Shown here: in pieces, positions 1,582 to 37,122 of the stretch
Position numbering within the stretch: position 1 is the first letter of the stretch
Layout: each line of letters starts with the position of its first letter
Assembly: GCF_003018255.1 (NCBI RefSeq)
Contig: NZ_CP027440.1
From: Escherichia coli
Lineage (GTDB): Bacteria; Pseudomonadota; Gammaproteobacteria; Enterobacterales; Enterobacteriaceae
DNA: 64,000 nucleotides
Reading direction: 5' to 3' (one strand)
Position numbers and translations under genes: made by a program
The notes under the pieces: model-generated
Seen by the model: only the letters and a program-made list of their open reading frames with translations
What the model was told of the DNA's origin: nothing
The model's database searches: none

Positions 1582-2172
1582 ATGACGGCGGAAGGTCACC
1601 TTCTCTTTTCTATTGCTTGTGCGGTATTTGCCAAAAATGCCGAGCTGACGCCCGTGCTGGCACAGGGTGACTGGTGGCATATTGTCCCTTCCGCAATCCT
1701 GACGTGTTTGTTACCGGACATCGATCACCCAAAGTCGTTTCTTGGGCAGCGATTAAAGTGGATATCAAAACCAATCGCCCGCGCTTTTGGGCATCGTGGT
1801 TTTACCCACAGTCTGCTGGCGGTATTTGCGCTGCTGGCAACCTTTTACCTTAAGGTTCCTGAAAGCTGGTTCATTCCGGCTGATGCGCTACAAGGAATGG
1901 TGCTGGGTTATTTGAGCCACATACTTGCCGATATGCTGACACCCGCCGGTGTTCCCCTGCTCTGGCCATGCCGCTGGCGTTTCCGCTTGCCTATCCTGGT
2001 TCCCCAAAAGGGCAACCAACTGGAACGTTTTATCTGCATGGCATTATTTGTCTGGTCGGTATGGATGCCCCATTCATTACCCGAAAACAGCGCTGTCCGT
2101 TGGTCATCGCAAATGATCAATACCTTGCAGATCCAGTTTCATCGGCTTATTAAGCATCAGGTTGAATACTAA
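1582..2172 (+). CDS. ydjM: SOS-regulated inner membrane protein YdjM
   Basis: ORF 1570-2172; start placed at ATG 1582 (MTAEGHLLF...); LexA boxes immediately upstream. Confidence 0.85.
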   Translation: MTAEGHLLFSIACAVFAKNAELTPVLAQGDWWHIVPSAILTCLLPDIDHPKSFLGQRLKWISKPIARAFGHRGFTHSLLAVFALLATFYLKVPESWFIPADALQGMVLGYLSHILADMLTPAGVPLLWPCRWRFRLPILVPQKGNQLERFICMALFVWSVWMPHSLPENSAVRWSSQMINTLQIQFHRLIKHQVEY

Positions 2173-2304
2173 AAAGGCAAAAATCACCTTTCTGGAATAA
2201 GCAATTCCATTTGAATATAAGAGCCAGCTCACAGTTCTGTTAATCTTGCGCCAACACTATGACTGCTACGCAGTGATAGAAATAATAAGATCAGGAGAAC
2301 GGGG

Positions 2305-3696
2305 ATGAACTTTCCATTAATTGCGAACATCGTGGTGTTCGTTGTACTGCTGTTTGCGCTGGCTCAGACCCGCCATAAACAGTGGAGTCTGGCGAAAAAA
2401 GTGCTGGTGGGTCTGGTGATGGGTGTGGTTTTTGGCCTCGCCCTGCATACCATTTATGGTTCTGACAGCCAGGTACTTAAAGATTCTGTACAGTGGTTTA
2501 ACATTGTTGGTAACGGCTATGTTCAACTCCTGCAAATGATCGTTATGCCGTTAGTCTTTGCCTCTATTCTGAGCGCGGTTGCCCGTCTGCATAACGCATC
2601 ACAGTTAGGCAAAATCAGTTTTCTGACCATCGGAACGCTTTTGTTTACCACACTGATTGCGGCGCTGGTCGGTGTGCTGGTCACCAACCTGTTTGGTTTG
2701 ACGGCTGAAGGTCTGGTTCAGGGTGGTGCAGAAACTGCACGTTTGAACGCCATCGAAAGTAACTATGTTGGTAAAGTCTCTGACCTGAGCGTTCCGCAGC
2801 TGGTCTTGTCCTTTATCCCGAAAAACCCGTTTGCCGATTTGACCGGAGCCAATCCGACGTCAATTATCAGCGTGGTAATTTTTGCCGCATTCCTCGGCGT
2901 AGCTGCGCTGAAGCTGCTGAAGGATGATGCGCCGAAAGGTGAACGCGTCTTAACCGCTATCGATACCCTGCAAAGCTGGGTGATGAAACTGGTTCGCCTG
3001 GTCATGCAGCTGACCCCTTACGGCGTTCTGGCGCTGATGACCAAAGTGGTTGCAGGTTCTAACCTGCAAGACATCATCAAACTGGGAAGTTTCGTTGTCG
3101 CGTCCTACCTCGGTCTTCTGATTATGTTTGCAGTGCATGGCCTTCTGCTGGGTATTAATGGCGTGAGCCCGCTGAAGTACTTCCGTAAGGTATGGCCAGT
3201 ACTGACGTTTGCCTTTACCAGCCGTTCCAGTGCTGCGTCTATCCCACTGAATGTGGAAGCACAAACGCGTCGACTCGGTGTTCCTGAATCCATCGCCAGT
3301 TTCGCCGCCTCTTTCGGTGCAACCATTGGTCAGAACGGCTGTGCCGGTTTGTATCCGGCGATGCTGGCGGTGATGGTTGCGCCTACGGTTGGCATTAACC
3401 CGATGGACCCGATGTGGATTGCGACGCTGGTCGGTATTGTTACCGTTAGTTCCGCAGGCGTTGCCGGTGTCGGTGGTGGTGCAACTTTCGCCGCACTGAT
3501 TGTGCTGCCTGCGATGGGCCTGCCGGTAACGCTGGTGGCATTGTTAATCTCCGTTGAACCGCTTATCGACATGGGTCGTACGGCGCTAAACGTTAGTGGC
3601 TCGATGACCGCTGGCACGCTGACCAGCCAGTGGCTGAAGCAAACCGATAAAGCTATTCTGGATAGCGAAGACGACGCCGAACTGGCACACCGTTAA
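2305..3696 (+). CDS. tcyP: L-cystine transporter (sodium:dicarboxylate symporter family) TcyP/YdjN
   Basis: 463-aa polytopic membrane ORF; RBS caggagaacgggg upstream. Confidence 0.85.
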
Positions 3697-6707: not shown

Positions 6708-7478
<771 letters not shown>

Positions 7479-8831
7479 TTAATGTGCTTTTTTAAGCTCT
7501 GCGATGCAGTCGGCAAAATTTGGCAACCATTTCTCGTGCGCCAGAATCATCTCGCGTGCCAGCAGCTCAGCATCGCGATCGGAATGCACCAACGGACTAA
7601 GGTTTAGGGCCAGTAACACATCGTTAAACTCTCCGCTAAGTGCGGCGTTGCTGGCAGCAATCTCGAAGCCTTTAATGGTGTGAATCAGCCCCATCACTTT
7701 ATCATCGAAATGCGTAATGCGCGGATGTGGCGTCGCGCCATCGCGCCCCAGCGTACAGGTCATTTCTACCGCCCAGTCTGCCGGAATATTATCAATATGC
7801 CCATGATGCGGGATATTAACGTAATGTTCAGCTTGCTTGTCGTTGTAGATAGCGTTGATCACTTCGCACGCTGCATCAGAGTAATAAGCCCCACCGCGCT
7901 GTTCCAGTTCTTTCGGCTTAACTTTCAACTCCGGGTTTTTATATAGCTCAAAAAGTTGTTTCTCGACTTTCTGTACTACCTGCGCTCGTGCGCCGCCTTT
8001 GTAGTATTCGCCCATTTCAATAGCCAGCATCTCTTTTTGCTTGAAGTAATAAAGCAAATAAGAACACGGCAACAGATTCATAGAACGAATTAAGCCTTCG
8101 CTAAATGGCAGATCGAAAATATTTTTAACGCCAGATGCTTTTAACTGCCCGGATGCCACACCATCAAGCAATTCGGCAAAGCGTGATTTGCCATTTACCA
8201 GCACATCCTTAATGAACACCATATGGTTGAGGCCGAACAGATCGATAGATAAATCATCGCTGTCTTTCAGCATCAGAACATCGCGAATAAACATCTTCAT
8301 GCCGATCGGAATATTACACACGCCGATAAAGCGTTTAAATCCGGTATGACGATAAACGGCTTCAGTGACCATTCCCGCCGGGTTAGTGAAGTTAATCACC
8401 CATGCATTCGGACATAGTTCTTCGACATCTTTTACGATGTCAAAAATCACCGGAATGGTACGCAGACCTTTAAACAGACCGCCCGCACCGTTAGTTTCCT
8501 GACCAAGATAACCATGACTTAATGGAATACGTTCATCCAGTTCGCGCGCCGGTAATTGGCCAACGCGCAGTTGGGTAGTAACGAAATCAGCATCTTTCAA
8601 TGCTTCGCGGCGATCCAGCGTTTTATAAAGCTTCATCGGGACGCCAGCGTTATCAATCATCCGTTGGCAGAGATCAAAAATAATATCCAGTTTCGCTTTA
8701 CCACCTTCGACATCCACCAGCCATAATTCGCTGACCGGCAATTCGTGATAACGCTTAATAAATCCTTCCAGTAACTCCGGGGTATAGCTGCTCCCGCCAC
8801 CAATAGTGACGACTTTTAATTTCTGGCTCAT
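7479..8831 (-). CDS. chbF: 6-phospho-beta-glucosidase (GH4 family, NAD/Mn-dependent) ChbF
   Basis: ORF 7479-8900; start placed at ATG 8831 (MSQKLKVVTIGGGSSYTPEL, NAD-binding fold) with RBS gggag upstream; 450 aa. Confidence 0.9.
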   Translation of the reverse strand: MSQKLKVVTIGGGSSYTPELLEGFIKRYHELPVSELWLVDVEGGKAKLDIIFDLCQRMIDNAGVPMKLYKTLDRREALKDADFVTTQLRVGQLPARELDERIPLSHGYLGQETNGAGGLFKGLRTIPVIFDIVKDVEELCPNAWVINFTNPAGMVTEAVYRHTGFKRFIGVCNIPIGMKMFIRDVLMLKDSDDLSIDLFGLNHMVFIKDVLVNGKSRFAELLDGVASGQLKASGVKNIFDLPFSEGLIRSMNLLPCSYLLYYFKQKEMLAIEMGEYYKGGARAQVVQKVEKQLFELYKNPELKVKPKELEQRGGAYYSDAACEVINAIYNDKQAEHYVNIPHHGHIDNIPADWAVEMTCTLGRDGATPHPRITHFDDKVMGLIHTIKGFEIAASNAALSGEFNDVLLALNLSPLVHSDRDAELLAREMILAHEKWLPNFADCIAELKKAH

Positions 8832-8934
8832 AATTTCTCCCTTCAGTACAGAATTCTGATATCTGGCATATCTGCCCCCCGGACATAAATAATCCAGCAA
8901 CAGGACAGATATGTGAATTGTCAGGTATAACGAC

Positions 8935-23563: not shown

Positions 23564-23729
23564 TTTAGCTGTTCTCCTGGCTCAAACTGGGTCAGGAGAA
23601 TTAACCTTGAGAAAAATCAACAAACTGTCAGTAATGATTTGTTGCCTGCCGTCCTTTGTTATACCGTCACTGCGTTTTTAGTTGTCTGACCACTTCTCTA
23701 TTATCAAGTTTGATATAGGAAACTCCACG

Positions 23730-24440
23730 ATGAACGCTGAGCGTAAATTTCTTTTTGCCTGTCTTATTTTTGCGCTGGTCATTTACGCTTTCCACGCTTT
23801 CGGTTTATTCGAGCTGCTCACCGATTTACCTCACTTACTGACACTCATTCGCCAGAGCGGATTGTTCGGTTATAGCCTCTATATTCTGTTATTCATCATT
23901 GCCACCCTCTTTCTGTTACCAGGAAGCATACTGGTGATCGCTGGAGGGATAGTTTTTGGCCCGCTCTTAGGGACACTACTATCATTAATTGCCGCCACGC
24001 TGGCCTCCTCGTGCTCATTCCTGCTGGCGCGCTGGCTGGGACGTGATTTACTGCTGAAATACGTTGGCCATAGCCATACCTTTCAGGCCATTGAAAAAGG
24101 CATTGCGCGTAACGGTATTGATTTTCTTATTCTGACCCGCTTAATCCCGTTGTTTCCTTACAATATTCAAAATTACGCTTACGGATTAACCACAATCGCC
24201 TTCTGGCCTTATACCCTTATTTCGGCACTCACAACCCTGCCCGGTATTGTTATTTATACCGTGATGGCAAGCGATCTCGCCAATGAAGGCATTACGCTGC
24301 GCTTTATTTTACAACTCTGTCTGGCGGGCCTGGCACTGTTTATTCTCGTCCAGCTCGCAAAACTCTACGCCCGACACAAACATGTGGATCTGTCTGCTTC
24401 GCGCCGCAGCCCACTTTCTCACCCCAAAAATGAAGGATAG
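23730..24440 (+). CDS. ydjX: DedA/TVP38-family inner membrane protein YdjX
   Basis: ORF 23682-24440; start placed at ATG 23730 (MNAERKFLF...) with RBS agga upstream; 236 aa. Confidence 0.8.
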   Translation: MNAERKFLFACLIFALVIYAFHAFGLFELLTDLPHLLTLIRQSGLFGYSLYILLFIIATLFLLPGSILVIAGGIVFGPLLGTLLSLIAATLASSCSFLLARWLGRDLLLKYVGHSHTFQAIEKGIARNGIDFLILTRLIPLFPYNIQNYAYGLTTIAFWPYTLISALTTLPGIVIYTVMASDLANEGITLRFILQLCLAGLALFILVQLAKLYARHKHVDLSASRRSPLSHPKNEG

Positions 24441-24444
24441 AACG

Positions 24445-25122
24445 ATGTTGCAACATTATTCAGTGTCATGGAAAAAAGGACTGGCTGCACTCTGCTTACT
24501 GGCTGTTGCTGGGCTTAGCGGCTGCGATCAAAAAGAGAATGCGGCTGCAAAAGTGGAATACGACGGACTTTCGAACAGCCAACCGCTGCGTGTCGATGCC
24601 AATAACCATACGGTAACCATGCTGGTGCAAATTAATGGTCGTTTCCTCACCGACGACACTCGTCACGGTATTGTGTTTAAAGATGGCTCCAACGGACATA
24701 AATCGCTGTTTATGGGTTATGCGACCCCGAAAGCATTTTATGAAGCCCTGAAAGAGGCAGGTGGTACGCCGGGCGAAAACATGACGATGGATAATAAAGA
24801 AACGACTCATGTCACAGGCAGCAAACTGGATATTTCGGTCAACTGGCAAGGGGCGGCAAAAGCGTATTCCTTCGATGAAGTGATTGTTGACAGTAATGGC
24901 AAGAAACTGGACATGCGCTTTGGCGGTAATTTAACGGCAGCAGAAGAGAAGAAAACGGGTTGCCTGGTGTGTCTGGATAGCTGCCCGGTCGGCATCGTCA
25001 GCAATGCAACATACACTTATGGTGCGGTGGAAAAACGCGGCGAAGTGAAATTCAAAGGCAATGCCTCAGTTCTCCTGGCGGATAACACGCTGGCAACGGT
25101 TACCTTTAAAATCACCGAATAA
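24445..25122 (+). CDS. ydjY: predicted lipoprotein YdjY with C-terminal Cys cluster
   Basis: ORF 24283-25122; start placed at ATG 24445 (MLQHYSVSWKK...); lipobox LSGC; motif CLVCLDSCP. Confidence 0.8.
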   Translation: MLQHYSVSWKKGLAALCLLAVAGLSGCDQKENAAAKVEYDGLSNSQPLRVDANNHTVTMLVQINGRFLTDDTRHGIVFKDGSNGHKSLFMGYATPKAFYEALKEAGGTPGENMTMDNKETTHVTGSKLDISVNWQGAAKAYSFDEVIVDSNGKKLDMRFGGNLTAAEEKKTGCLVCLDSCPVGIVSNATYTYGAVEKRGEVKFKGNASVLLADNTLATVTFKITE

Positions 25123-25135
25123 AGCAGGATAACGG

Positions 25136-25843
25136 ATGATGAAGATGCAATCGCGTAAAATCTGGTACTACCGTATAACCCTCATCATCCTGTTGTTCGC
25201 TGTGCTGCTGGCATGGGCGCTGCTTCCCGGCGTCCATGTGTTTATCAATCGCAGCGTTGCGGCGTTTGCCGCCGTGGACCAACAGGGTATAGAACGCTTT
25301 ATTCAGTCTTACGGCGCACTAGCGGCAGTTGTCTCGTTCTTGTTGATGATTTTACAGGCCATTGCTGCACCGCTACCTGCGTTTTTGATCACCTTTGCCA
25401 ATGCGTCGCTGTTTGGTGCGTTCTGGGGCGGCTTACTGTCGTGGACCAGTTCGATGGCCGGCGCGGCACTGTGCTTTTTTATCGCCAGAGTGATGGGCCG
25501 CGAAGTGGTGGAAAAATTAACCGGCAAAACCGTACTTGACAGTATGGACGGCTTTTTCACTCGCTACGGCAAACACACCATCCTGGTATGTCGGTTATTG
25601 CCTTTTGTCCCTTTCGATCCAATCAGCTATGCTGCCGGTTTGACTTCAATACGTTTTCGCTCGTTTTTTATCGCCACCGGGCTTGGTCAATTACCGGCGA
25701 CTATTGTTTATTCCTGGGCGGGCAGCATGTTAACAGGCGGTACTTTCTGGTTTGTCACCGGACTGTTTATTCTGTTTGCCCTGACCGTGGTGATTTTTAT
25801 GGCGAAGAAAATATGGCTTGAGCGCCAGAAGAGGAATGCCTGA
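25136..25843 (+). CDS. ydjZ: DedA/TVP38-family inner membrane protein YdjZ
   Basis: 235-aa membrane ORF. Confidence 0.8.
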   Translation: MMKMQSRKIWYYRITLIILLFAVLLAWALLPGVHVFINRSVAAFAAVDQQGIERFIQSYGALAAVVSFLLMILQAIAAPLPAFLITFANASLFGAFWGGLLSWTSSMAGAALCFFIARVMGREVVEKLTGKTVLDSMDGFFTRYGKHTILVCRLLPFVPFDPISYAAGLTSIRFRSFFIATGLGQLPATIVYSWAGSMLTGGTFWFVTGLFILFALTVVIFMAKKIWLERQKRNA

Positions 25844-26391
25844 TGGGTTTACCGCCGCTTAGCAAAATTCCTTTCATTTTACGTCCGCAGGCGTGGCTGC
25901 ATCGTCGCCATTACGGCGAGGTGCTAAGCCCGATTCGCTGGTGGGGGCGGATCCCGTTTATCTTTTATCTGGTGTCGATGTTTGTCGGCTGGCTGGAGCG
26001 CAAACGCTCACCGCTCGATCCGGTAGTACGATCGCTTGTCAGCGCGCGCATTGCGCAAATGTGCCTGTGTGAGTTTTGCGTGGATATCACCAGTATGAAA
26101 GTCGCCGAGCGTACCGGCAGCACCGATAAACTGCTGGCAGTGGCTGACTGGCGGCAAAGCCCGCTCTTTAGCGATGAAGAACGGCTGGCGCTGGAGTACG
26201 CCGAAGCCGCAAGCGTAACGCCGCCAACGGTCGATGATGCCCTGCGCGCCCGACTGGCTACGCATTTTGACGCTCAGGCGCTCACCGAACTGACGGCATT
26301 GATAGGCCTGCAAAATCTGTCAGCCCGTTTTAATTCTGCCATGGACATTCCCGCTCAGGGGCTGTGCCGTATTCCTGAAAAACGTTCTTAA
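25843..26391 (+). CDS. ynjA: carboxymuconolactone decarboxylase (AhpD-like) family protein YnjA
   Basis: 182-aa ORF; start overlaps ydjZ stop by 1 nt; CxCxxC-like motif MCLCEFC. Confidence 0.8.
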   Translation: MGLPPLSKIPFILRPQAWLHRRHYGEVLSPIRWWGRIPFIFYLVSMFVGWLERKRSPLDPVVRSLVSARIAQMCLCEFCVDITSMKVAERTGSTDKLLAVADWRQSPLFSDEERLALEYAEAASVTPPTVDDALRARLATHFDAQALTELTALIGLQNLSARFNSAMDIPAQGLCRIPEKRS

Positions 26392-26400
26392 GGAGAGAAG

Positions 26401-27567
26401 ATGCGCCATTGTGGGTGGTTGCTGGGATTGTTATCGCTGTTTTCTTTGGCAACACATGCCAGTGACTGGCAGGAAATAAAAAATGAGGCCAAAGGACAAA
26501 CCGTCTGGTTTAACGCCTGGGGCGGCGATACCGCAATTAACCGCTATCTCGACTGGGTTAGCGGCGAGATGAAAACCCATTACGCTATAAACCTGAAGAT
26601 TGTTCGTCTCGCGGATGCCGCAGACGCGGTGAAGCGCATTCAGACCGAAGCTGCTGCCGGACGCAAAACGGGCGGTTCGGTGGATCTGCTCTGGGTGAAC
26701 GGCGAAAACTTCCGCACCTTAAAAGAGGCCAATTTATTACAAACGGGCTGGGCGGAGACTCTGCCCAACTGGCGCTATGTCGACACACAGCTTCCGGTGC
26801 GGGAAGATTTTTCAGTGCCTACAGAAGGGGCTGAATCGCCCTGGGGCGGCGCACAACTGACATTTATCGCCCGCCGCGATGTTACGCCACAGCCACCACA
26901 AACGCCGCAAACCTTACTGGAGTTTGCTAAAGCCAATCCCGGCACGGTTACCTATCCGCGCCCACCGGACTTTACCGGCACGGCGTTTCTTGAACAGTTG
27001 CTGATTATGCTAACGCCAGATCCCACAGCATTAAAAGAAGCGCCGGACGATGCGACTTTCGCCCGCGTCACTGCGCCCTTGTGGCAATATCTTGATGCAC
27101 TGCATCCGTATTTATGGCGCGAAGGAAAGGATTTCCCGCCTTCGCCCGCGCGGATGGATGCTCTGCTGAAAGCTACCACATTGCGCCTGTCGCTGACCTT
27201 TAACCCTGCACATGCGCAGCAAAAAATCGCCAGCGGCGATTTGCCTGCAAGCAGTTACAGTTTTGGTTTTCGCGAGGGGATGATTGGCAACGTCCATTTC
27301 GTCACCATTCCTGCCAACGCGAATGCCAGTGCTGCGGCGAAGGTAGTTGCCAATTTCCTGCTCTCACCCGATGCACAACTGCGTAAAGCAGATCCCGCTG
27401 TCTGGGGCGATCCTTCTGTTCTCGATCCGCAAAAACTGCCTGACGGGCAGCGCGAAACATTGCAATCGAGAATGCCGCAAGATCTGCCGCCGGTACTGGC
27501 TGAACCGCACGCAGGTTGGGTAAATACGCTGGAACAAGAATGGCTACACCGTTACGGTACGCATTAA
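26401..27567 (+). CDS. ynjB: ABC transporter periplasmic substrate-binding protein YnjB
   Basis: 388-aa ORF with signal peptide (LSLFSLATHA). Confidence 0.8.
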   Translation: MRHCGWLLGLLSLFSLATHASDWQEIKNEAKGQTVWFNAWGGDTAINRYLDWVSGEMKTHYAINLKIVRLADAADAVKRIQTEAAAGRKTGGSVDLLWVNGENFRTLKEANLLQTGWAETLPNWRYVDTQLPVREDFSVPTEGAESPWGGAQLTFIARRDVTPQPPQTPQTLLEFAKANPGTVTYPRPPDFTGTAFLEQLLIMLTPDPTALKEAPDDATFARVTAPLWQYLDALHPYLWREGKDFPPSPARMDALLKATTLRLSLTFNPAHAQQKIASGDLPASSYSFGFREGMIGNVHFVTIPANANASAAAKVVANFLLSPDAQLRKADPAVWGDPSVLDPQKLPDGQRETLQSRMPQDLPPVLAEPHAGWVNTLEQEWLHRYGTH

Positions 27568-29075
27568 TCTTTTTGCTGTGGGCGATGATGGCGGTGATTT
27601 ATGCACCGCAGATCCCGGCAGCTCTCACGCTGATATCGCCTGCTTTGTCGTTGACGCACTGGCAGGCGTTATTTGCCGATCCACAGTTACCGCAGGCATT
27701 ACTGGCGACGCTGGTGTCGACAACCATTGCGGCGGTCGGGGCGTTGTTGATTGCCCTGCTGGTGATTGTGGCGTTGTGGCCAGGGCCGAAATGGCAGCGT
27801 ATGTGCGCCCGGCTGCCGTGGCTGCTCGCCATTCCCCATGTGGCTTTTGCCACCAGCGCCCTTCTGCTCTTTGCTGACGGAGGGCTGCTTTATGACTATT
27901 TCCCGTATTTCACTCCGCCAATGGACCGATTTGGCATCGGTCTGGGCCTCACCCTCGCAGTGAAAGAAAGCGCATTTCTGCTGTGGATCTTAGCGGCAGT
28001 ATTGAGCGAAAAACGGCTGTTGCAGCAAGTTATTGTACTGGATTCGCTGGGCTACAGCCGCTGGCAATGCCTGAACTGGCTGCTGTTGCCCTCTGTCGCG
28101 CCTGCGCTGGCAATGGCGATGCTGGCGATTGTGGCCTGGTCGCTGTCGGTCGTGGATGTGGCGATTATCCTTGGGCCAGGTAATCCCCCGACGCTGGCGG
28201 TAATTAGCTGGCAGTGGTTAACTCAGGGCGACGCCGATCAACAAACGAAAGGTGCACTCGCCAGCCTGCTGCTGATGCTGTTACTCGCCGCCTACGTTTT
28301 GCTGGGCTATCTGCTATGGCGTAGCTGGAGGCGTACTATTCCCCGCGTAGATGGCGTTCGTAAGCCTGCCACGCCTTTATTGCCTGGCATTACTCTGGCG
28401 AGTTTTTTACCCTTGACCGGTGTGCTGTGTGTGGTTCTGTTGGCGATCCTCGCGGATCAGTCGACGATCAATAGTGAAGCGCTCATCAATAGCCTGACGA
28501 TGGGACTTACCGCGACGTTTATCGCTTTAATCCTGATACTGGCGTGGCTGGAATGGGGATCGTCACGTCGGCATTTCTGGCTATGGTTGCCCATTTTATT
28601 ACCCGCTCTGCCACTGGTGGCGGGCCAGTACACGCTGGCGCTATGGCTAAACCTAGATGGAAGCTGGACGGCGGTGGTCTGGGGGTATCTGCTGTGGGTA
28701 ATGCCGTGGATGCTGTTTATCCTGCAACCCGCCTGGCAGCGCATTGATTCACGGTTAATTTTGATTGCGCAAACACTGGGCTGGTCGCGGTCCAAAATCT
28801 TCTTTTACGTGAAATGTCCGCTTATGCTACGCCCTACGCTGATTGCCTTCGCGGTGGGATTTTCAGTCAGTATTGCACAGTATATGCCGACGCTGTGGCT
28901 GGGCGCGGGGCGTTTTCCGACGCTCACCACTGAAGCGGTGGCATTAAGCAGCGGCGGCAGCAACGGCATTCTCGCCGCCCAGGCTTTATGGCAACTGCTA
29001 TTACCGCTTATTATTTTTGCCCTGACCGCGTTAGTCGCAAAATGGGTAGGTTATGTCAGACAAGGACTCCGCTAA
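27540..29075 (+). CDS. ynjC: ABC transporter permease YnjC
   Basis: ORF 27516-29075; start placed at ATG 27540 (MATPLRYAL...); polytopic membrane protein. Confidence 0.75.
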   Translation: MATPLRYALIFLLWAMMAVIYAPQIPAALTLISPALSLTHWQALFADPQLPQALLATLVSTTIAAVGALLIALLVIVALWPGPKWQRMCARLPWLLAIPHVAFATSALLLFADGGLLYDYFPYFTPPMDRFGIGLGLTLAVKESAFLLWILAAVLSEKRLLQQVIVLDSLGYSRWQCLNWLLLPSVAPALAMAMLAIVAWSLSVVDVAIILGPGNPPTLAVISWQWLTQGDADQQTKGALASLLLMLLLAAYVLLGYLLWRSWRRTIPRVDGVRKPATPLLPGITLASFLPLTGVLCVVLLAILADQSTINSEALINSLTMGLTATFIALILILAWLEWGSSRRHFWLWLPILLPALPLVAGQYTLALWLNLDGSWTAVVWGYLLWVMPWMLFILQPAWQRIDSRLILIAQTLGWSRSKIFFYVKCPLMLRPTLIAFAVGFSVSIAQYMPTLWLGAGRFPTLTTEAVALSSGGSNGILAAQALWQLLLPLIIFALTALVAKWVGYVRQGLR

Positions 29076-29728
29076 TGCTCTGCGTGAAAAATGTTTCGCT
29101 ACGTTTACCAGAAAGCCGCTTGCTGACAAACGTTAACTTTACGGTGGATAAAGGTGACATTGTCACGTTAATGGGGCCGTCTGGCTGTGGAAAATCCACT
29201 CTGTTTTCATGGATGATTGGTGGACTGGCCGGACAGTTTTCTTGTACAGGGGAGCTATGGCTCAATGAGCAACGGATTGACATGCTACCCACCGCACAGC
29301 GTCAGATTGGCATTCTTTTCCAGGATGCACTGTTATTTGACCAGTTCAGCGTCGGGCAAAATTTACTGCTGGCGCTACCGGCGACACTTAAAGGGAATGC
29401 CCGACGTAATGCCGTGAATGATGCACTTGAGCGTTCAGGCCTTGACGGAGCTTTCCATCAGGATCCTGCTACTTTGTCTGGCGGTCAGCGAGCGCGCGTT
29501 GCTCTGCTACGCGCCCTTCTCGCCCAGCCAAAAGCGTTACTCCTGGATGAGCCATTCAGCCGTCTAGATGTGGCTCTGCGCGATAATTTTCGCCAGTGGG
29601 TGTTCAGCGAAGTTCGCGCCCAGGCGATCCCCGTCGTTCAGGTAACGCACGATCTCCAGGATGTTCCTGCTGATAGTTCTGTTCTGGATATGGCGCAGTG
29701 GTCAGAAAATTACAACAAACTGCGATAA
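29075..29728 (+). CDS. ynjD: ABC transporter ATP-binding protein YnjD
   Basis: ORF 28988-29728; start placed at ATG 29075 overlapping ynjC stop (TAATG); Walker A GPSGCGKST, signature LSGGQRARV. Confidence 0.85.
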   Translation: MLCVKNVSLRLPESRLLTNVNFTVDKGDIVTLMGPSGCGKSTLFSWMIGGLAGQFSCTGELWLNEQRIDMLPTAQRQIGILFQDALLFDQFSVGQNLLLALPATLKGNARRNAVNDALERSGLDGAFHQDPATLSGGQRARVALLRALLAQPKALLLDEPFSRLDVALRDNFRQWVFSEVRAQAIPVVQVTHDLQDVPADSSVLDMAQWSENYNKLR

Positions 29729-29794
29729 CGCAAAGTTTTTCTCAATGCGTCAGTTCAGAATGGCGCACTCAAAACTACAATGTCGGGATTTTCG

Positions 29795-31102
29795 ATGAAA
29801 CGTGTTTCTCAAATGACCGCGCTGGCAATGGCTTTAGGGCTGGCTTGCGCTTCTTCGTGGGCCGCTGAACTGGCGAAGCCTCTTACACTTGACCAGCTTC
29901 AACAACAAAATGGCAAAGCGATAGATACTCGCCCCAGCGCGTTTTATAACGGCTGGCCACAAACCTTAAATGGCCCTTCTGGTCATGAACCTGCCGCCTT
30001 AAACCTCTCTGCTAACTGGCTCGACAAAATGAGCACCGAACAGCTCAACGAGTGGATCAAGCAACATAACCTGAAAGCCGATGCTCCGGTGGCGCTGTAC
30101 GGTAATGACAAAGATGTCGACGCCGTCAAAAAGCGACTGCAAAAAGCAGGTTTTACGCATATCTCCATTCTGAGTGACGCGCTAAGCGAACCTTCCCGTC
30201 TGCAAAAACTGCCGCATTTTGAGCAGCTGGTTTATCCGCAATGGCTGCACGACCTGCAACAAGGTAAAGAGGTTACGGCGAAACCTGCCGGTGACTGGAA
30301 AGTCATTGAAGCGGCCTGGGGCGCTCCTAAGCTTTACCTTATCAGCCATATTCCCGGCGCTGACTACATCGATACCAACGAAGTGGAAAGCGAACCGCTG
30401 TGGAACAAAGTTTCTGATGAACAACTAAAAGCGATGCTGGCAAAACACGGCATTCGCCATGACACCACGGTCATTCTGTACGGGCGTGACGTATACGCTG
30501 CAGCGCGTGTGGCACAAATTATGCTCTACGCTGGCGTGAAAGATGTCCGCCTGCTGGACGGCGGCTGGCAAACCTGGTCCGACGCGGGACTGCCCGTTGA
30601 GCGCGGAACGCCACCGAAAGTGAAAGCGGAACCGGATTTCGGCGTGAAGATCCCGGCACAACCGCAACTGATGCTTGATATTGAACAAGCGCGTGGACTG
30701 CTGCATCGCCAGGATGCATCGCTGGTGAGCATTCGTTCGTGGCCAGAATTTATCGGTACGACCAGCGGTTACAGCTATATTAAACCAAAAGGTGAAATAG
30801 CCGGAGCACGTTGGGGACACGCTGGTAGCGACTCGACGCATATGGAAGATTTCCATAACCCGGATGGCACCATGCGTAGCGCCGATGATATTACCGCTAT
30901 GTGGAAAGCATGGAATATCAAGCCAGATCAGCAAGTTTCATTCTACTGCGGCACCGGCTGGCGCGCGTCAGAAACCTTTATGTACGCACGCGCAATGGGC
31001 TGGAATAACGTCTCCGTTTATGACGGTGGCTGGTACGAATGGAGCAGCGATCCAAAAAATCCGGTAGCAACCGGTGAACGCGGCCCGGACAGCAGTAAAT
31101 AA
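29795..31102 (+). CDS. ynjE: periplasmic multi-domain rhodanese (thiosulfate sulfurtransferase) YnjE
   Basis: ORF 29780-31102; start placed at ATG 29795; signal peptide; rhodanese active-site loop CGTGWR. Confidence 0.85.
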   Translation: MKRVSQMTALAMALGLACASSWAAELAKPLTLDQLQQQNGKAIDTRPSAFYNGWPQTLNGPSGHEPAALNLSANWLDKMSTEQLNEWIKQHNLKADAPVALYGNDKDVDAVKKRLQKAGFTHISILSDALSEPSRLQKLPHFEQLVYPQWLHDLQQGKEVTAKPAGDWKVIEAAWGAPKLYLISHIPGADYIDTNEVESEPLWNKVSDEQLKAMLAKHGIRHDTTVILYGRDVYAAARVAQIMLYAGVKDVRLLDGGWQTWSDAGLPVERGTPPKVKAEPDFGVKIPAQPQLMLDIEQARGLLHRQDASLVSIRSWPEFIGTTSGYSYIKPKGEIAGARWGHAGSDSTHMEDFHNPDGTMRSADDITAMWKAWNIKPDQQVSFYCGTGWRASETFMYARAMGWNNVSVYDGGWYEWSSDPKNPVATGERGPDSSK

Positions 31103-31110
31103 CATTGCAA

Positions 31111-31737
31111 TTACTGACGCTGGAGCGACTTCAGCGTCAGATACCCACTCCACACCCGCGTAAAGGTCGTCATCCAGCACAACGCACCAAATACCCACGC
31201 AAACCACGGAAAACAGGCCGGAAAGAGGCAACTCAGAACAAACAGCAAAATCGTCTCGCTGCCTTCGGTTAAGCCGCCCAGATAATAAAACGATTTATGC
31301 GCATAACCGGGATTATCAATCTGATGTTTCGCCGCCAGCGCAGCAAAAGCGAGAAAACTGCTGCCCGTGCCGATAAACGCAAACAACAGCCAGCCTCCGG
31401 CCAGCGCGTTTTGTTCTGGTGCGGCGAGAATAAAACCAAACGGCACCAGCGCGTAAAAGAGAAAATCGAGAGAAATATCGAGAAAGCCGCCCGCGTCGGT
31501 AAGTCCTCTGCGCCGCGCCAGCGCACCGTCCAGACCATCAAGCAGCCTGTTCAACAAAATGACGATTAGCGCCGCCAGATACCAGCCCAGCGCCAGAAAC
31601 GGCAGTGCCAGCACGCCGATGGCAAATCCCACTAATGTTAAACCATCTGGCGTGATGCCGGGTTTATCCAGCACCTTCACACACTGATGCAACAAAGGTT
31701 TAATTCGGGGATGAAGATGGCGGTCTAGCACAGGCAC
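31111..31737 (-). CDS. ynjF: CDP-alcohol phosphatidyltransferase family membrane protein YnjF
   Basis: 208-aa ORF with D-G-x2-A-R ... D motif region (DGLDGALARRRG). Confidence 0.8.
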   Translation of the reverse strand: MPVLDRHLHPRIKPLLHQCVKVLDKPGITPDGLTLVGFAIGVLALPFLALGWYLAALIVILLNRLLDGLDGALARRRGLTDAGGFLDISLDFLFYALVPFGFILAAPEQNALAGGWLLFAFIGTGSSFLAFAALAAKHQIDNPGYAHKSFYYLGGLTEGSETILLFVLSCLFPACFPWFAWVFGALCWMTTFTRVWSGYLTLKSLQRQ

Positions 31738-31817: not shown

Positions 31818-32225
31818 ATGAAAATGATTGAAGTTGTTGCCGCCATCATTGAACGTGATGGCAAAATTTTACTCGCGCAACGCCCCGCCCAGAGCGATCA
31901 GGCGGGATTATGGGAGTTTGCCGGTGGTAAAGTCGAGCCGGATGAAAGCCAGCGGCAGGCGCTGGTGCGTGAGTTAAACGAAGAACTGGGCATCGAAGCA
32001 ACTGTTGGTGACTATGTTGCCAGCCATCAGCGAGAAGTTTCGGGGCGGATTATCCATCTTCATGCCTGGCACGTACCCGACTTCCACGGGACGTTACAGG
32101 CACATGAACATCAGGCGCTGGTCTGGTGCTCACCTGAAGAGGCGCTGCAATATCCGCTGGCCCCTGCTGACATTCCATTATTAGAGGCGTTTATGGCTTT
32201 ACGCGCCGCCAGACCAGCGGATTAG
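31818..32225 (+). CDS. nudG: Nudix hydrolase NudG (CTP pyrophosphohydrolase)
   Basis: 135-aa ORF with Nudix box GGKVEPDESQRQALVRELNEELGI. Confidence 0.9.
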   Translation: MKMIEVVAAIIERDGKILLAQRPAQSDQAGLWEFAGGKVEPDESQRQALVRELNEELGIEATVGDYVASHQREVSGRIIHLHAWHVPDFHGTLQAHEHQALVWCSPEEALQYPLAPADIPLLEAFMALRAARPAD

Positions 32226-36078: not shown

Positions 36079-37122
36079 TTAACGGATCTCAACCATGGCA
36101 CGACCGCCGCGCGCTGGCACCAGTTCGCCAATCGCCGTCAGTTCAATGCCAAACTCGGCGGCTGTAGCTTTGACCTCATTTTCTGCTTCCGGCATGACCG
36201 CCAGCAGCAAACCGCCAGAAGTTTGCGGATCGCACAGCAGTTCGCGCACTTCACGCGGCATTTCACCCATCAGATGACCGTAGCTGGCAAAGTTACGTTC
36301 GGTGCCGCCAGGCACTGCGCCCAACTTAATGTACTCTTCAACCCCCGGCAATTTCGGGATCGCGTCATAGTCGACGCGCGCCTGCACACCTGCGCCCTGA
36401 CACATTTCGCTTAAATGCCCCAGTAAACCAAAACCCGTAACGTCGGTCATCGCTTTTACGCCTTCGATGTTGGCAAAGGACGCGCCTGCGATGTTCATCC
36501 GGCACATCACTTCCGTCGCCAGTCCCTGATGTTCTGGTTTCAGCAGTGATTTTTTCTCAGCCGTGGTAAGAACGCCAATCCCCAGAGGTTTCGTCAGGAA
36601 CAGTTTGCATCCGGCTTGTGCGGTACTGTTTTTCTTCACCCGCTCGGTAGGTACGATCCCCGTTACCGCCAGACCAAAAATCGGCTCCGGCGCATCGATG
36701 GAGTGACCGCCAGCCAGCGCAATACCCGCCTGACGGCATGCATGGCGTCCACCTTCGGTCACTTCGCGGGCAATTTCCGGGGAAAGTTTGTTAATCGGCC
36801 AGCCGAGGATCGCAATCGCCATAATCGGTTTGCCGCCCATTGCGAAGATATCGCTGATGGCGTTAGTCGCCGCAATGCGGCCAAAATCGAAAGGATTATC
36901 AACGATCGGCATAAAGAAGTCGGTGGTGCTGATAACGCTGGTGCCATTGCCCAGATCGTACACCGCCGCATCGTCGCGGGTTTCATTACCCACAAGCAAA
37001 TTCGGATCAACAAACTTCGCCTGCTCACTGTGCAGGATGGTTTCCAACACTTTTGGGGAAATTTTACAGCCGCAACCAGCGCCGTGGCTGTATTGGGTCA
37101 AACGAATCGAGTTCTCGCTCAT
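36079..37122 (-). CDS. selD: selenide, water dikinase (selenophosphate synthetase)
   Basis: ORF 36079-37128; start at ATG 37122 ([23 protein letters not shown]); 347 aa. Confidence 0.95.

Follow-up and report, generated by a model that had tools for sequence, protein, structure and literature searches.

The window analysed here is a 64-kb stretch of an Escherichia chromosome. Between positions 23730 and 31102 it carries the tightly packed genes ydjXYZ-ynjABCDE, followed on the opposite strand by ynjF. They encode membrane, periplasmic and transport proteins that are considered here as candidate parts of one envelope module. The genes and the other features on which the argument draws are as follows.

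ydjX, 23730-24440, plus strand: DedA/TVP38 (VTT-domain) inner-membrane protein of 236 amino acids
ydjY, 24445-25122, plus strand: lipoprotein of 225 amino acids with the Cys triad C173/C176/C180 and the lipobox LSG/C
ydjZ, 25136-25843, plus strand: second DedA/VTT-domain membrane protein, 235 amino acids
ynjA, 25843-26391, plus strand: CMD/AhpD-family protein of 182 amino acids with a CxCxxC motif (C74, C76, C79)
ynjB, 26401-27567, plus strand: periplasmic substrate-binding protein of 388 amino acids with a signal peptide
ynjC, 27540-29075, plus strand: fused double ATP-binding cassette (ABC) permease of 511 amino acids
ynjD, 29075-29728, plus strand: ABC ATPase of 217 amino acids
ynjE, 29795-31102, plus strand: periplasmic three-domain rhodanese of 435 amino acids with the loop C385GTGWR
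ynjF, 31111-31731, minus strand: membrane protein of 206 amino acids of the cytidine diphosphate (CDP)-alcohol phosphatidyltransferase family, convergent with ynjE
FNR-type box, 23607-23620, plus strand: TTGAGAAAAATCAA, one mismatch to TTGATN4ATCAA, upstream of ydjX
Sigma-70-like promoter, 29754-29781, plus strand: TTCAGA-16-TACAAT, from a consensus scan, in the ynjD-ynjE gap
selD, 36079-37122, minus strand: selenide, water dikinase (NCBIfam NF002098, E 4.9e-186)

Translation of the window bears out the eight co-directional genes described in the initial annotation: all open reading frames (ORFs) from ydjX to ynjE are intact on the plus strand, with successive junctions of 4, 13, -1 (TGATG), 9, -28, -1 (TAATG) and 66 nucleotides (nt). 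The 28-nt overlap of ynjB and ynjC, which that annotation lacked, holds for the annotated ynjC start at ATG 27540; an alternative TTG start at 27516 (window 27516-27567) would extend it to 52 nt. With either start, the overlap suggests translational coupling of the two genes. The Cys motifs reported earlier are present as well, CLVCLDSCP at YdjY 173-181, MCLCEFC at YnjA 73-79 and CGTGWR at YnjE 385-390. The RefSeq annotation of the closest-matching E. coli genome uses the same gene names and gives the order xthA, ydjX-Z, ynjA-E, ynjF (opposite strand), then nudG, ynjH, gdhA and topB. Across complete E. coli genomes the 9-kb region is matched in 5424 of 5426, is covered to at least 80% in 5392, and reaches a best identity of 98.8%. 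GC content over 20-38 kb of the window displays no horizontal-transfer anomaly. The gene order is identical in E. albertii, E. whittamii and Citrobacter, and the arrangement is therefore not a chance juxtaposition.

The cluster is transcribed under anaerobic control. A genome-wide study described two distinct operons under direct activation by FNR, ydjXYZ-ynjABCD with a site at -60.5 and ynjE with one at -41.5, the latter site being based on chromatin immunoprecipitation sequencing (ChIP-seq) and RNA sequencing (PMC3688515). The position of TTGAGAAAAATCAA is consistent with the published site at -60.5, and the sigma-70-like promoter at 29754-29781 with a separate FNR-activated ynjE unit (PMC3688515). 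No FNR box with two or fewer mismatches occurs within the 66-nt ynjD-ynjE gap. The xthA stop lies 166 nt upstream of ydjX. This interval holds the FNR-type box, and the published promoters are separate, ydjX having its own (PMC3688515); co-transcription with xthA, which had been raised for this cluster, is therefore unlikely. Directly past the xthA stop, an inverted repeat without a T-run (ttctcctg...caggagaa, 23572-23600) may mark the end of the xthA transcript. Overproduction of BaeR mildly induces ynjABCD (PMC2731931).

E. coli has eight DedA paralogues, YdjX and YdjZ among them. Both contain a VTT domain (Pfam PF09335, VTT_dom) above the significance threshold, with E values of 2.3e-26 and 1.6e-24, respectively. 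Neither belongs to the characterised equivalogs, the undecaprenyl-phosphate transporter UptA and E. coli DedA (PRK10847), the scores being 28.6 and 36.2 bits where 250 is required and 27.5 where 236 is. Between the two lies the gene for YdjY, whose lipobox LSG/C is followed by Asp at position +2. This residue is the inner-membrane retention signal in E. coli Lol sorting, and YdjY is predicted to be retained at the inner membrane. YdjY passes the curated cut-off of its domain family (PF27149/NF040466) with 139.8 bits against 50. The family is rare; a set of 1.84 billion proteins contains 395 representatives of it at 50% identity. Its residues C173, C176 and C180 (GCxxCxxxC) are invariant among 65 sequences, and the CxxCxxxC triad is retained in 104 of 114 full-length family representatives. 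As modelled, the YdjY fold is without a structural relative. Many database entries nevertheless carry the label "4Fe-4S ferredoxin-type domain", and there is a resemblance to ferredoxins in the CxxxCP portion of the motif, phmmer matching NuoI-like chains at E ~0.3. YdjY would then be an electron-transfer lipoprotein of the iron-sulfur (ferredoxin) type and the cluster a periplasmic redox chain. This is highly improbable, and YdjY was rejected as a 4Fe-4S ferredoxin: only three Cys are conserved (CxxCxxxC), no second cluster motif or four-ligand CxxCxxCxxxCP is present, the lipoprotein signal is of the Sec rather than the Tat type, and the predicted fold is not that of a ferredoxin.

The rhodanese YnjE is preceded by a signal peptide (..SSWA/AE) and consists of three domains, with the catalytic Cys385 in the six-residue CX4R loop CGTGWR. 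Its own structures have been solved (PDB 3IPO, E 2.8e-285; PDB 2WLR, E ~1e-285). After itself, the next solved relative is the anaerobic ergothioneine synthase EanB (PDB 6KTV, 6H98; E ~1e-88), which shares the loop FYCGTGWR. YnjE differs from EanB in its cleavable signal peptide and in the absence of an EanA-like methyltransferase from the cluster. EanB itself is a cytoplasmic enzyme that acts on hercynine together with the methyltransferase EanA. Comparable, too, is ExtH of the Geobacter selenite/tellurite reduction operon, likewise an exported multi-domain rhodanese, genetically tied to selenium and tellurium chemistry. YnjE matches its model (NCBIfam NF040901) at 1.1e-10 but scores 41 bits where the cut-off is 200; the partners of ExtH are multihaem cytochromes, of which the ydjX-ynjE cluster encodes none. 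A further weak match is to a rhodanese (seleno)protein NCBIfam model. YnjE has been handled as a periplasmic protein, with no apparent thiosulfate:glutathione (GSH) activity and poor activity with 3-mercaptopyruvate (PMC10215317). Homologues encoded beside ydjY in Catonella, a Peptostreptococcaceae metagenome-assembled genome and Campylobacter possess a lipobox or signal peptide together with a CG[TS]GWR loop.

YnjA belongs to the CMD family (Pfam PF02627, E 5.3e-8) and contains a CxxC motif, C76-E-F-C79, that aligns to the CxxC of PDB 2ijc (2e-9); its other PDB relatives include the Bmp8 debrominase and AhpD. Its top NCBIfam match is "YciW-related (seleno)protein" at 2.7e-29, under the cut-off of that model. 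YnjA is without a signal peptide and so is presumed to be cytoplasmic. By tblastn its homologues occur in enteric loci only and in none of the non-enteric ones; a CMD-family gene in the distant cluster L092 has only the CxxC region in common with it.

YnjB, YnjC and YnjD together form the complete ABC importer that had been proposed, of type-I architecture, with an exported substrate-binding protein, two transmembrane domains and the ATPase motifs. YnjB has a classical signal peptide (..ATHA/SD) and matches NCBIfam PRK11622 with 558 bits, close relatives matching Pfam PF13416. Only close enterobacterial proteins appear among the top 120 matches listed in its homologue search, and no PDB relative was found by sequence. 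Its AlphaFold2 model (pLDDT 90) has a cluster-D substrate-binding fold according to Foldseek, akin to PhnS-like STM0429, PotD, FbpA and AfuA at 12-17% identity, proteins with very different ligands. YnjC weakly matches the NCBIfam PhnU2, ModB and CysT permeases, all far under cut-off, and its counterpart in Firmicutes loci is two separate permease genes. In YnjD the translation reads GPSGCGKS (Walker A), LSGGQ (signature) and LLLDEP (Walker B); its top NCBIfam matches, PhnT2 (2.6e-42) and ThiQ (3.3e-39), are both under cut-off. This importer shares its type-I architecture with CysPUWA/Sbp, ThiBPQ and the 2-aminoethylphosphonate system PhnS2T2U2, while missing the equivalog cut-offs widely. The scores are 23 bits for CysT against 246-415, 108.5 for CysA against 502 and 134.7 for ThiQ against 245, with no Sbp, CysP or ThiB match for YnjB among NCBIfam models, and the curated cut-offs of molybdate and phosphonate systems are missed by far as well. 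The cluster is not a CysPUWA, ThiBPQ, EanAB or ferredoxin system, because defining features of each are lacking.

YnjF matches Pfam PF01066 (E 5.6e-11), and its translation contains the complete CDP-alcohol phosphatidyltransferase motif DxxDGxxARx7-8Gx3Dx3D, as DGLDGALARRRGLTDAGGFLDISLD. It is essentially without a published study in the literature searched. YnjF-like genes share operons with YdjY, DedA and YnjB genes in five non-enteric loci and in the locus L088 described below, and ynjF, which lay outside the coordinates of the initial annotation, is part of the conserved set. Divergent from ynjF is nudG (31818-32225, plus strand), annotated as a cytidine triphosphate (CTP) pyrophosphohydrolase; the two may be a functional pairing on CTP and CDP-alcohol chemistry.

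Whether these genes belong together was judged from the surroundings of ydjY in other bacteria. One genome per species (100,044 species) was scanned with the patterns CLDSCPVG and GAVEKRxEV, which yielded 94 YdjY loci; 80 loci of 20 kb were kept and grouped into 43 lineages. They come from Escherichia, Citrobacter, mostly anaerobic Firmicutes, Campylobacterota, Desulfobacterota and one spirochaete. A DedA gene is found close to ydjY in 71 of the 80 loci, sharing its strand in 69 and lying no more than 1.5 kb away in 62. In five of the nine loci lacking one, the contig ends near ydjY. YdjX-like genes (30-38% identity) adjoin ydjY in many lineages, and YdjZ-like genes (50-59% identity to E. coli) lie beside it, mostly downstream, in Firmicutes and Campylobacterota. 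A rhodanese of any kind is encoded near ydjY in 10 of the 43 lineages, a YnjB-type binding protein with permeases and ATPase in 9, and a YnjF-type CDP-alcohol phosphatidyltransferase in 6. In the operon of L055 the order is YdjY-(four-transmembrane protein)-DedA-DedA-DedA-YnjF-YnjB-permease-permease-ATPase. Several of the partners are also joined in single polypeptides, as rhodanese::YdjY (P0272, P0274), YdjY-rhodanese-YdjY (P0349), DedA::YdjY (P0242, P0310) and fatty-acid-hydroxylase::YdjY fusions.

The most complete counterpart, L088, was found outside the pattern scan. One strand encodes a DedA protein, a rhodanese::YdjY fusion, a four-transmembrane protein and a second DedA protein; the other encodes an ABC ATPase, two permeases, a YnjB-like protein (36% identity), a YnjF-like protein and a CCG protein. 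L088 thus amounts to the full E. coli gene set minus ynjA, with the rhodanese fused to YdjY. The neighbourhood comparison proposed in the initial annotation therefore favours its module of rhodanese, lipoprotein, DedA proteins and ABC importer, with the order kept in Enterobacterales relatives, synteny beyond the enterics, the fusions and L088 all on its side; what had to be revised is the extent of the unit, which is larger and includes ynjF. The invariant core is the extracytoplasmic Cys-triad lipoprotein YdjY with DedA/VTT proteins, and the E. coli cluster is a pared-down enterobacterial version of a rare, mostly anaerobe-associated envelope module.

Several further observations concern the make-up of these loci. 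YdjY and YdjZ of Escherichia (window 24445-25843) are 46-60% identical to those of Firmicutes and Campylobacterota loci (L012-L085) despite the rarity of the family, and such high cross-phylum identity suggests horizontal spread. A membrane domain of about 125 amino acids and four helices, with the motif VWLEMRV, follows ydjY (for example L037 10646-11026, L065 3311-3688, L088 9097-9483) or is fused to the N-terminus of a YdjZ-like DedA protein (L013 10694-11878); it is absent from E. coli and without a Pfam or NCBIfam match. In Desulfobacterota, YdjX-like DedA proteins bear an N-terminal HdrD-like domain with ferredoxin motifs and CCG repeats (L019 8002-9957, L023 128-1774, L025 2537-4582), which suggests that a disulfide-type reduction is coupled to DedA on the cytoplasmic side. 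The metagenomic cluster L091 encodes VTT (DedA)::APH/choline-kinase-like and YdjY-rhodanese-YdjY fusions (7217-8923, 1603-3303), along with CofC/DUF2064/GT2, CCG, nucleoside-hydrolase and YnjB-type binding proteins. The divergent L094 (310-5018), with no DedA gene in view, encodes a pair of YdjY paralogues and a protein that faintly matches Sulf_transp (YeeE/YedE family).

The same comparison bears on whether the E. coli genes have any common function at all. YnjE could work with IscS in cytoplasmic molybdopterin synthesis, YdjX and YdjZ could be DedA paralogues with a general part in membrane homeostasis, YnjBCD could be unrelated and import in the manner of thiamine or phosphonate transporters, and the packing could be a matter of operon economy. 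Published work, as cited in PMC4326299 and PMC3688515, gives YnjE a role in directing IscS sulfur to MoaD, ynjE has its own promoter, and the YnjB family forms more than 4479 clusters against 238 for YdjY, so that YnjBCD often occurs without YdjY. Set against this are the cross-phylum synteny and domain fusions, the FNR control common to both transcription units, and the export signals on YnjE and its ydjY-adjacent homologues, YnjE being treated as periplasmic in PMC10215317. A set of unrelated genes is accordingly improbable, and the nine genes from ydjX to ynjE plus ynjF probably constitute one envelope module.

A pointer to what this module handles comes from its accessory neighbours. SelD is encoded within 10 kb of ydjY in five lineages, and YedF ("selenium metabolism protein") near it in six. 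One or the other lies within 10 kb in 7 of 43 lineages against ~0.5 expected, a rough gene-density estimate made with no formal test. Such recurrent adjacency in unrelated lineages is a trait of selenium-utilisation neighbourhood genes in the sense of YedE, YedF and DUF3343 (Lin 2015). Gene orders in Desulfobacterota include DedA-YdjY-SelD and SelD-YedF-x-YdjY. In L088, YedF and a PF11823 (DUF3343) selenium/sulfur carrier directly follow the second DedA gene, and the CCG protein matches a "dicluster near Sec" model. ArsS-type radical-SAM (seleno)proteins are found near ydjY in eight lineages, TIGR04282/TIGR04283 transferases in nine and MprF-type flippase-like proteins in five; C-GCAxxG-C-C (seleno)protein family members, nucleoside-hydrolase-like and choline-kinase-like proteins recur too, as do HdrD-like CCG/Fer4 domains, either free or fused to the N-terminus of DedA. 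Within the 64-kb window, selD is the sole accessory family found, 5 kb past the ynjE stop with ynjF, nudG, ynjH, gdhA and topB in between; tblastn with representatives of the ArsS, TIGR04282/3, kinase and nucleosidase genes gave no match there.

A probable selenoprotein gene lies inside clusters of Facklamia and Bacillus benzoevorans, where a PrdB/GrdB-like gene ends at a conserved in-frame TGA. The ORFs of this kind in YdjY clusters (L074 4879-5346, L077 3693-4160, L066 13115-13591, and also in L078, L082 and L084) all reach the TGA behind ..SPG, and the conserved stretch YICHQSVGLIQ continues beyond it. The TGA is a probable selenocysteine codon, and the product would be an unannotated selenoprotein.

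Taken with these neighbours, the module is tentatively read as an anaerobically induced system for capturing a thiophilic chalcogen, selenium being the likeliest, in the envelope and for transferring it through the inner membrane, a reading that we consider possible, somewhat short of an even chance. The relay proposed for it is built from localisation signals, conserved residues, fusions and neighbourhoods, and each of its steps is inferred. Periplasmic YnjE would load the element on Cys385 as a persulfide or perselenide and hand it to C173/C176/C180 of the inner-membrane-anchored YdjY, for example as a selenotrisulfide. YdjX and YdjZ would then carry the element, or a carrier bearing it, across the membrane. 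In the cytoplasm the CxxC of YnjA would release it reductively, a role that the HdrD-like CCG domain would take in other lineages, and the released element would be passed on to SelD. YnjBCD would import a small partner molecule, which YnjF may attach to lipid. The selenoprotein formate dehydrogenases of E. coli are made under anaerobiosis, and FNR activation of both units fits an anaerobic demand for selenoproteins. Also counted in favour of selenium are the poor activity of YnjE with sulfur donors, the "(seleno)protein" matches of YnjA and YnjE, and the connection drawn between selenite uptake and resistance in Cupriavidus metallidurans CH34 and one of its DedA proteins (Ledgham 2005, cited in PMC8679861). 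According to reviews published in 2022 and 2026, prokaryotes have no known specific high-affinity transporter for selenium (PMC9312934, PMC13188914). YdjY-DedA with YnjE, YnjA, YnjBCD and YnjF could be the first such dedicated acquisition system, by a mechanism without precedent: capture by a Cys triad at the outer face, inward carriage by DedA proteins and possibly a lipid-linked carrier, for which YnjBCD would bring in the head group and YnjF would do the assembly. This extended proposal is doubtful.

A number of points weigh against selenium. No link of ydjY or the ynj genes to selenium was found in the searchable literature; the published neighbourhood-derived selenium candidates (YedE, YedF, LysR_Se, DUF3343) do not include these genes (PMC5322559). 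In about 34 of the 43 lineages neither SelD nor YedF occurs within 10 kb, and selD could lie so near in E. coli by chance (~0.4%). The scan was limited to two patterns and so sampled only the conserved branch of YdjY. Selenocysteine (in-frame TGA) variants of YdjY, YnjA and YnjE are absent from the 80 loci, and a "(seleno)protein" family name means that some members contain selenocysteine, nothing more. The published cytoplasmic role of YnjE in molybdopterin synthesis, as given in PMC3688515 and PMC4326299, runs counter to a periplasmic relay, and the scheme leaves the need for an ABC importer and a CDP-alcohol phosphatidyltransferase unexplained. Arsenic is another candidate for the element, given that the commonest accessory genes, ArsS and TIGR04282/3, take their name from arsenosugar synthesis; the arsenic-resistance genes arsM, arsC and acr3 are not among the recurrent families, though no dedicated search was made for them. 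Sulfur is an equal candidate, since neither rhodanese nor TusA/DsrE or DUF3343 proteins discriminate between it and selenium. The few SelD/YedF loci and the pattern-limited scan are the reasons why a single system is considered probable and its assignment to selenium only tentative.

The initial annotation had favoured a sulfur function. On such a view the module would take up or handle thiosulfate, polysulfide or persulfide, with YnjE and YdjY carrying sulfane sulfur in the periplasm and YnjBCD importing. A rhodanese fold with a CX4R loop is typical of sulfurtransferases, and EanB, the closest characterised relative of YnjE, uses sulfane sulfur. YedF (TusA/DsrE) and PF11823 are annotated as selenium/sulfur carriers, the HdrD-like CCG domain suggests disulfide chemistry, and one divergent locus has the faint Sulf_transp match. 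The sulfur label is nonetheless not specifically supported and appears unlikely. YnjC and YnjD fall far under the CysT and CysA cut-offs, YnjB is without an Sbp/CysP match, and YnjE is poor with 3-mercaptopyruvate and lacks thiosulfate:GSH activity (PMC10215317). Sulfur-assimilation, sulfur-oxidation, Sox and Dsr genes are missing from the recurrent ydjY neighbours, where SelD, YedF, DUF3343 and ArsS/TIGR04282-3 recur instead. The operon is, moreover, FNR-activated and, to our knowledge, not part of the CysB sulfur-starvation regulon.

The importer and YnjF, left over by the selenium relay, are accommodated if the product is a modified membrane lipid. YnjBCD would import a phosphonate-, phospho-alcohol- or sugar-type precursor for the head group, YnjF would couple it to lipid, the DedA proteins would flip the product, and YdjY and YnjE would modify it or load it with metalloid at the outer leaflet. 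The E. coli genes would then represent the salvage arm of an "arsenosugar"-type (or seleno-sugar) lipid pathway of the ArsS/TIGR04282-3 kind that is complete in other anaerobes. The catalytic motif of YnjF is intact, and its gene consistently adjoins that of YnjB in Firmicutes operons; MprF-type flippase-like genes in five lineages, the fatty-acid-hydroxylase::YdjY and VTT::APH-kinase fusions, and the recurrence of choline-kinase-like, CofC/DUF2064/GT2, nucleoside-hydrolase-like and ArsS genes point the same way. The best matches of YnjC, YnjD and YnjB are components of 2-aminoethylphosphonate-type transporters, nudG neighbours ynjF, and DedA proteins are lipid and undecaprenyl-phosphate flippases according to 10.1101/2022.02.03.479048. 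From the constant pairing of YnjBCD with YnjF, the lipid-related fusions, and the genes for kinases and nucleotidyl transferases in fuller clusters, one may suspect a lipid-linked head group or carrier. A lipid as the product itself is, all the same, a rather unlikely outcome: ArsS, TIGR04282/3, kinase and nucleosidase genes are all absent from the window, the YdjY-DedA core is often found with no lipid enzyme beside it, and the adjacency to SelD and YedF is unexplained unless the lipid carries selenium. We know of no unusual lipid in E. coli.

Read as a selenium system, the module is reminiscent of YedE/YedF and YeeE/YeeD (TsuA/TsuB), each of which likewise combines a membrane transporter with a Cys-based sulfur- or selenium-transfer protein. 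YeeE/YeeD takes up thiosulfate, and YedE/YedF is a predicted selenium transporter with its redox partner. YedE/YedF has SelD neighbourhood links like those seen here (PMC5322559), and YedF itself lies inside some YdjY clusters. The protein families differ, Sulf_transp with TusA/DsrE in those pairs against DedA/VTT with the YdjY fold here. The Cys proteins YdjY and YnjE are, in addition, extracytoplasmic, and the module adds an ABC importer and a CDP-alcohol phosphatidyltransferase. The Cupriavidus DedA protein is of the same family and implicated in selenium movement; as cited in PMC8679861, it is a single gene for which no YdjY, rhodanese or ABC partner is described, while YdjX and YdjZ belong to the TVP38/TMEM64-like branch. 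The ArsS/TIGR04282/TIGR04283 "arsenosugar biosynthesis" set, formerly called rSAM/selenodomain-associated, supplies the commonest accessory neighbours of YdjY-DedA (eight to nine lineages), whereas the window holds none of those genes and E. coli keeps the envelope and import parts only.

Annotation of the locus and its FNR regulation are already known; definition of the module across phyla, inclusion of ynjF and the association with selenium appear to be new relative to the searchable literature. Selenoprotein synthesis itself was elucidated in E. coli. If the selenium reading is true, an FNR-induced cluster supplying the element would fill a long-standing gap in prokaryotic selenium uptake. 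It would also give YdjX and YdjZ their first biochemical context and the YdjY fold a function, explain the export of YnjE and its inactivity with the usual sulfur donors, and tie E. coli to the widespread ArsS/TIGR04282-3 clusters of anaerobes. Should the sulfur or the lipid reading be true instead, the conserved nine-gene set would still be a coherent system in the best-studied bacterium.

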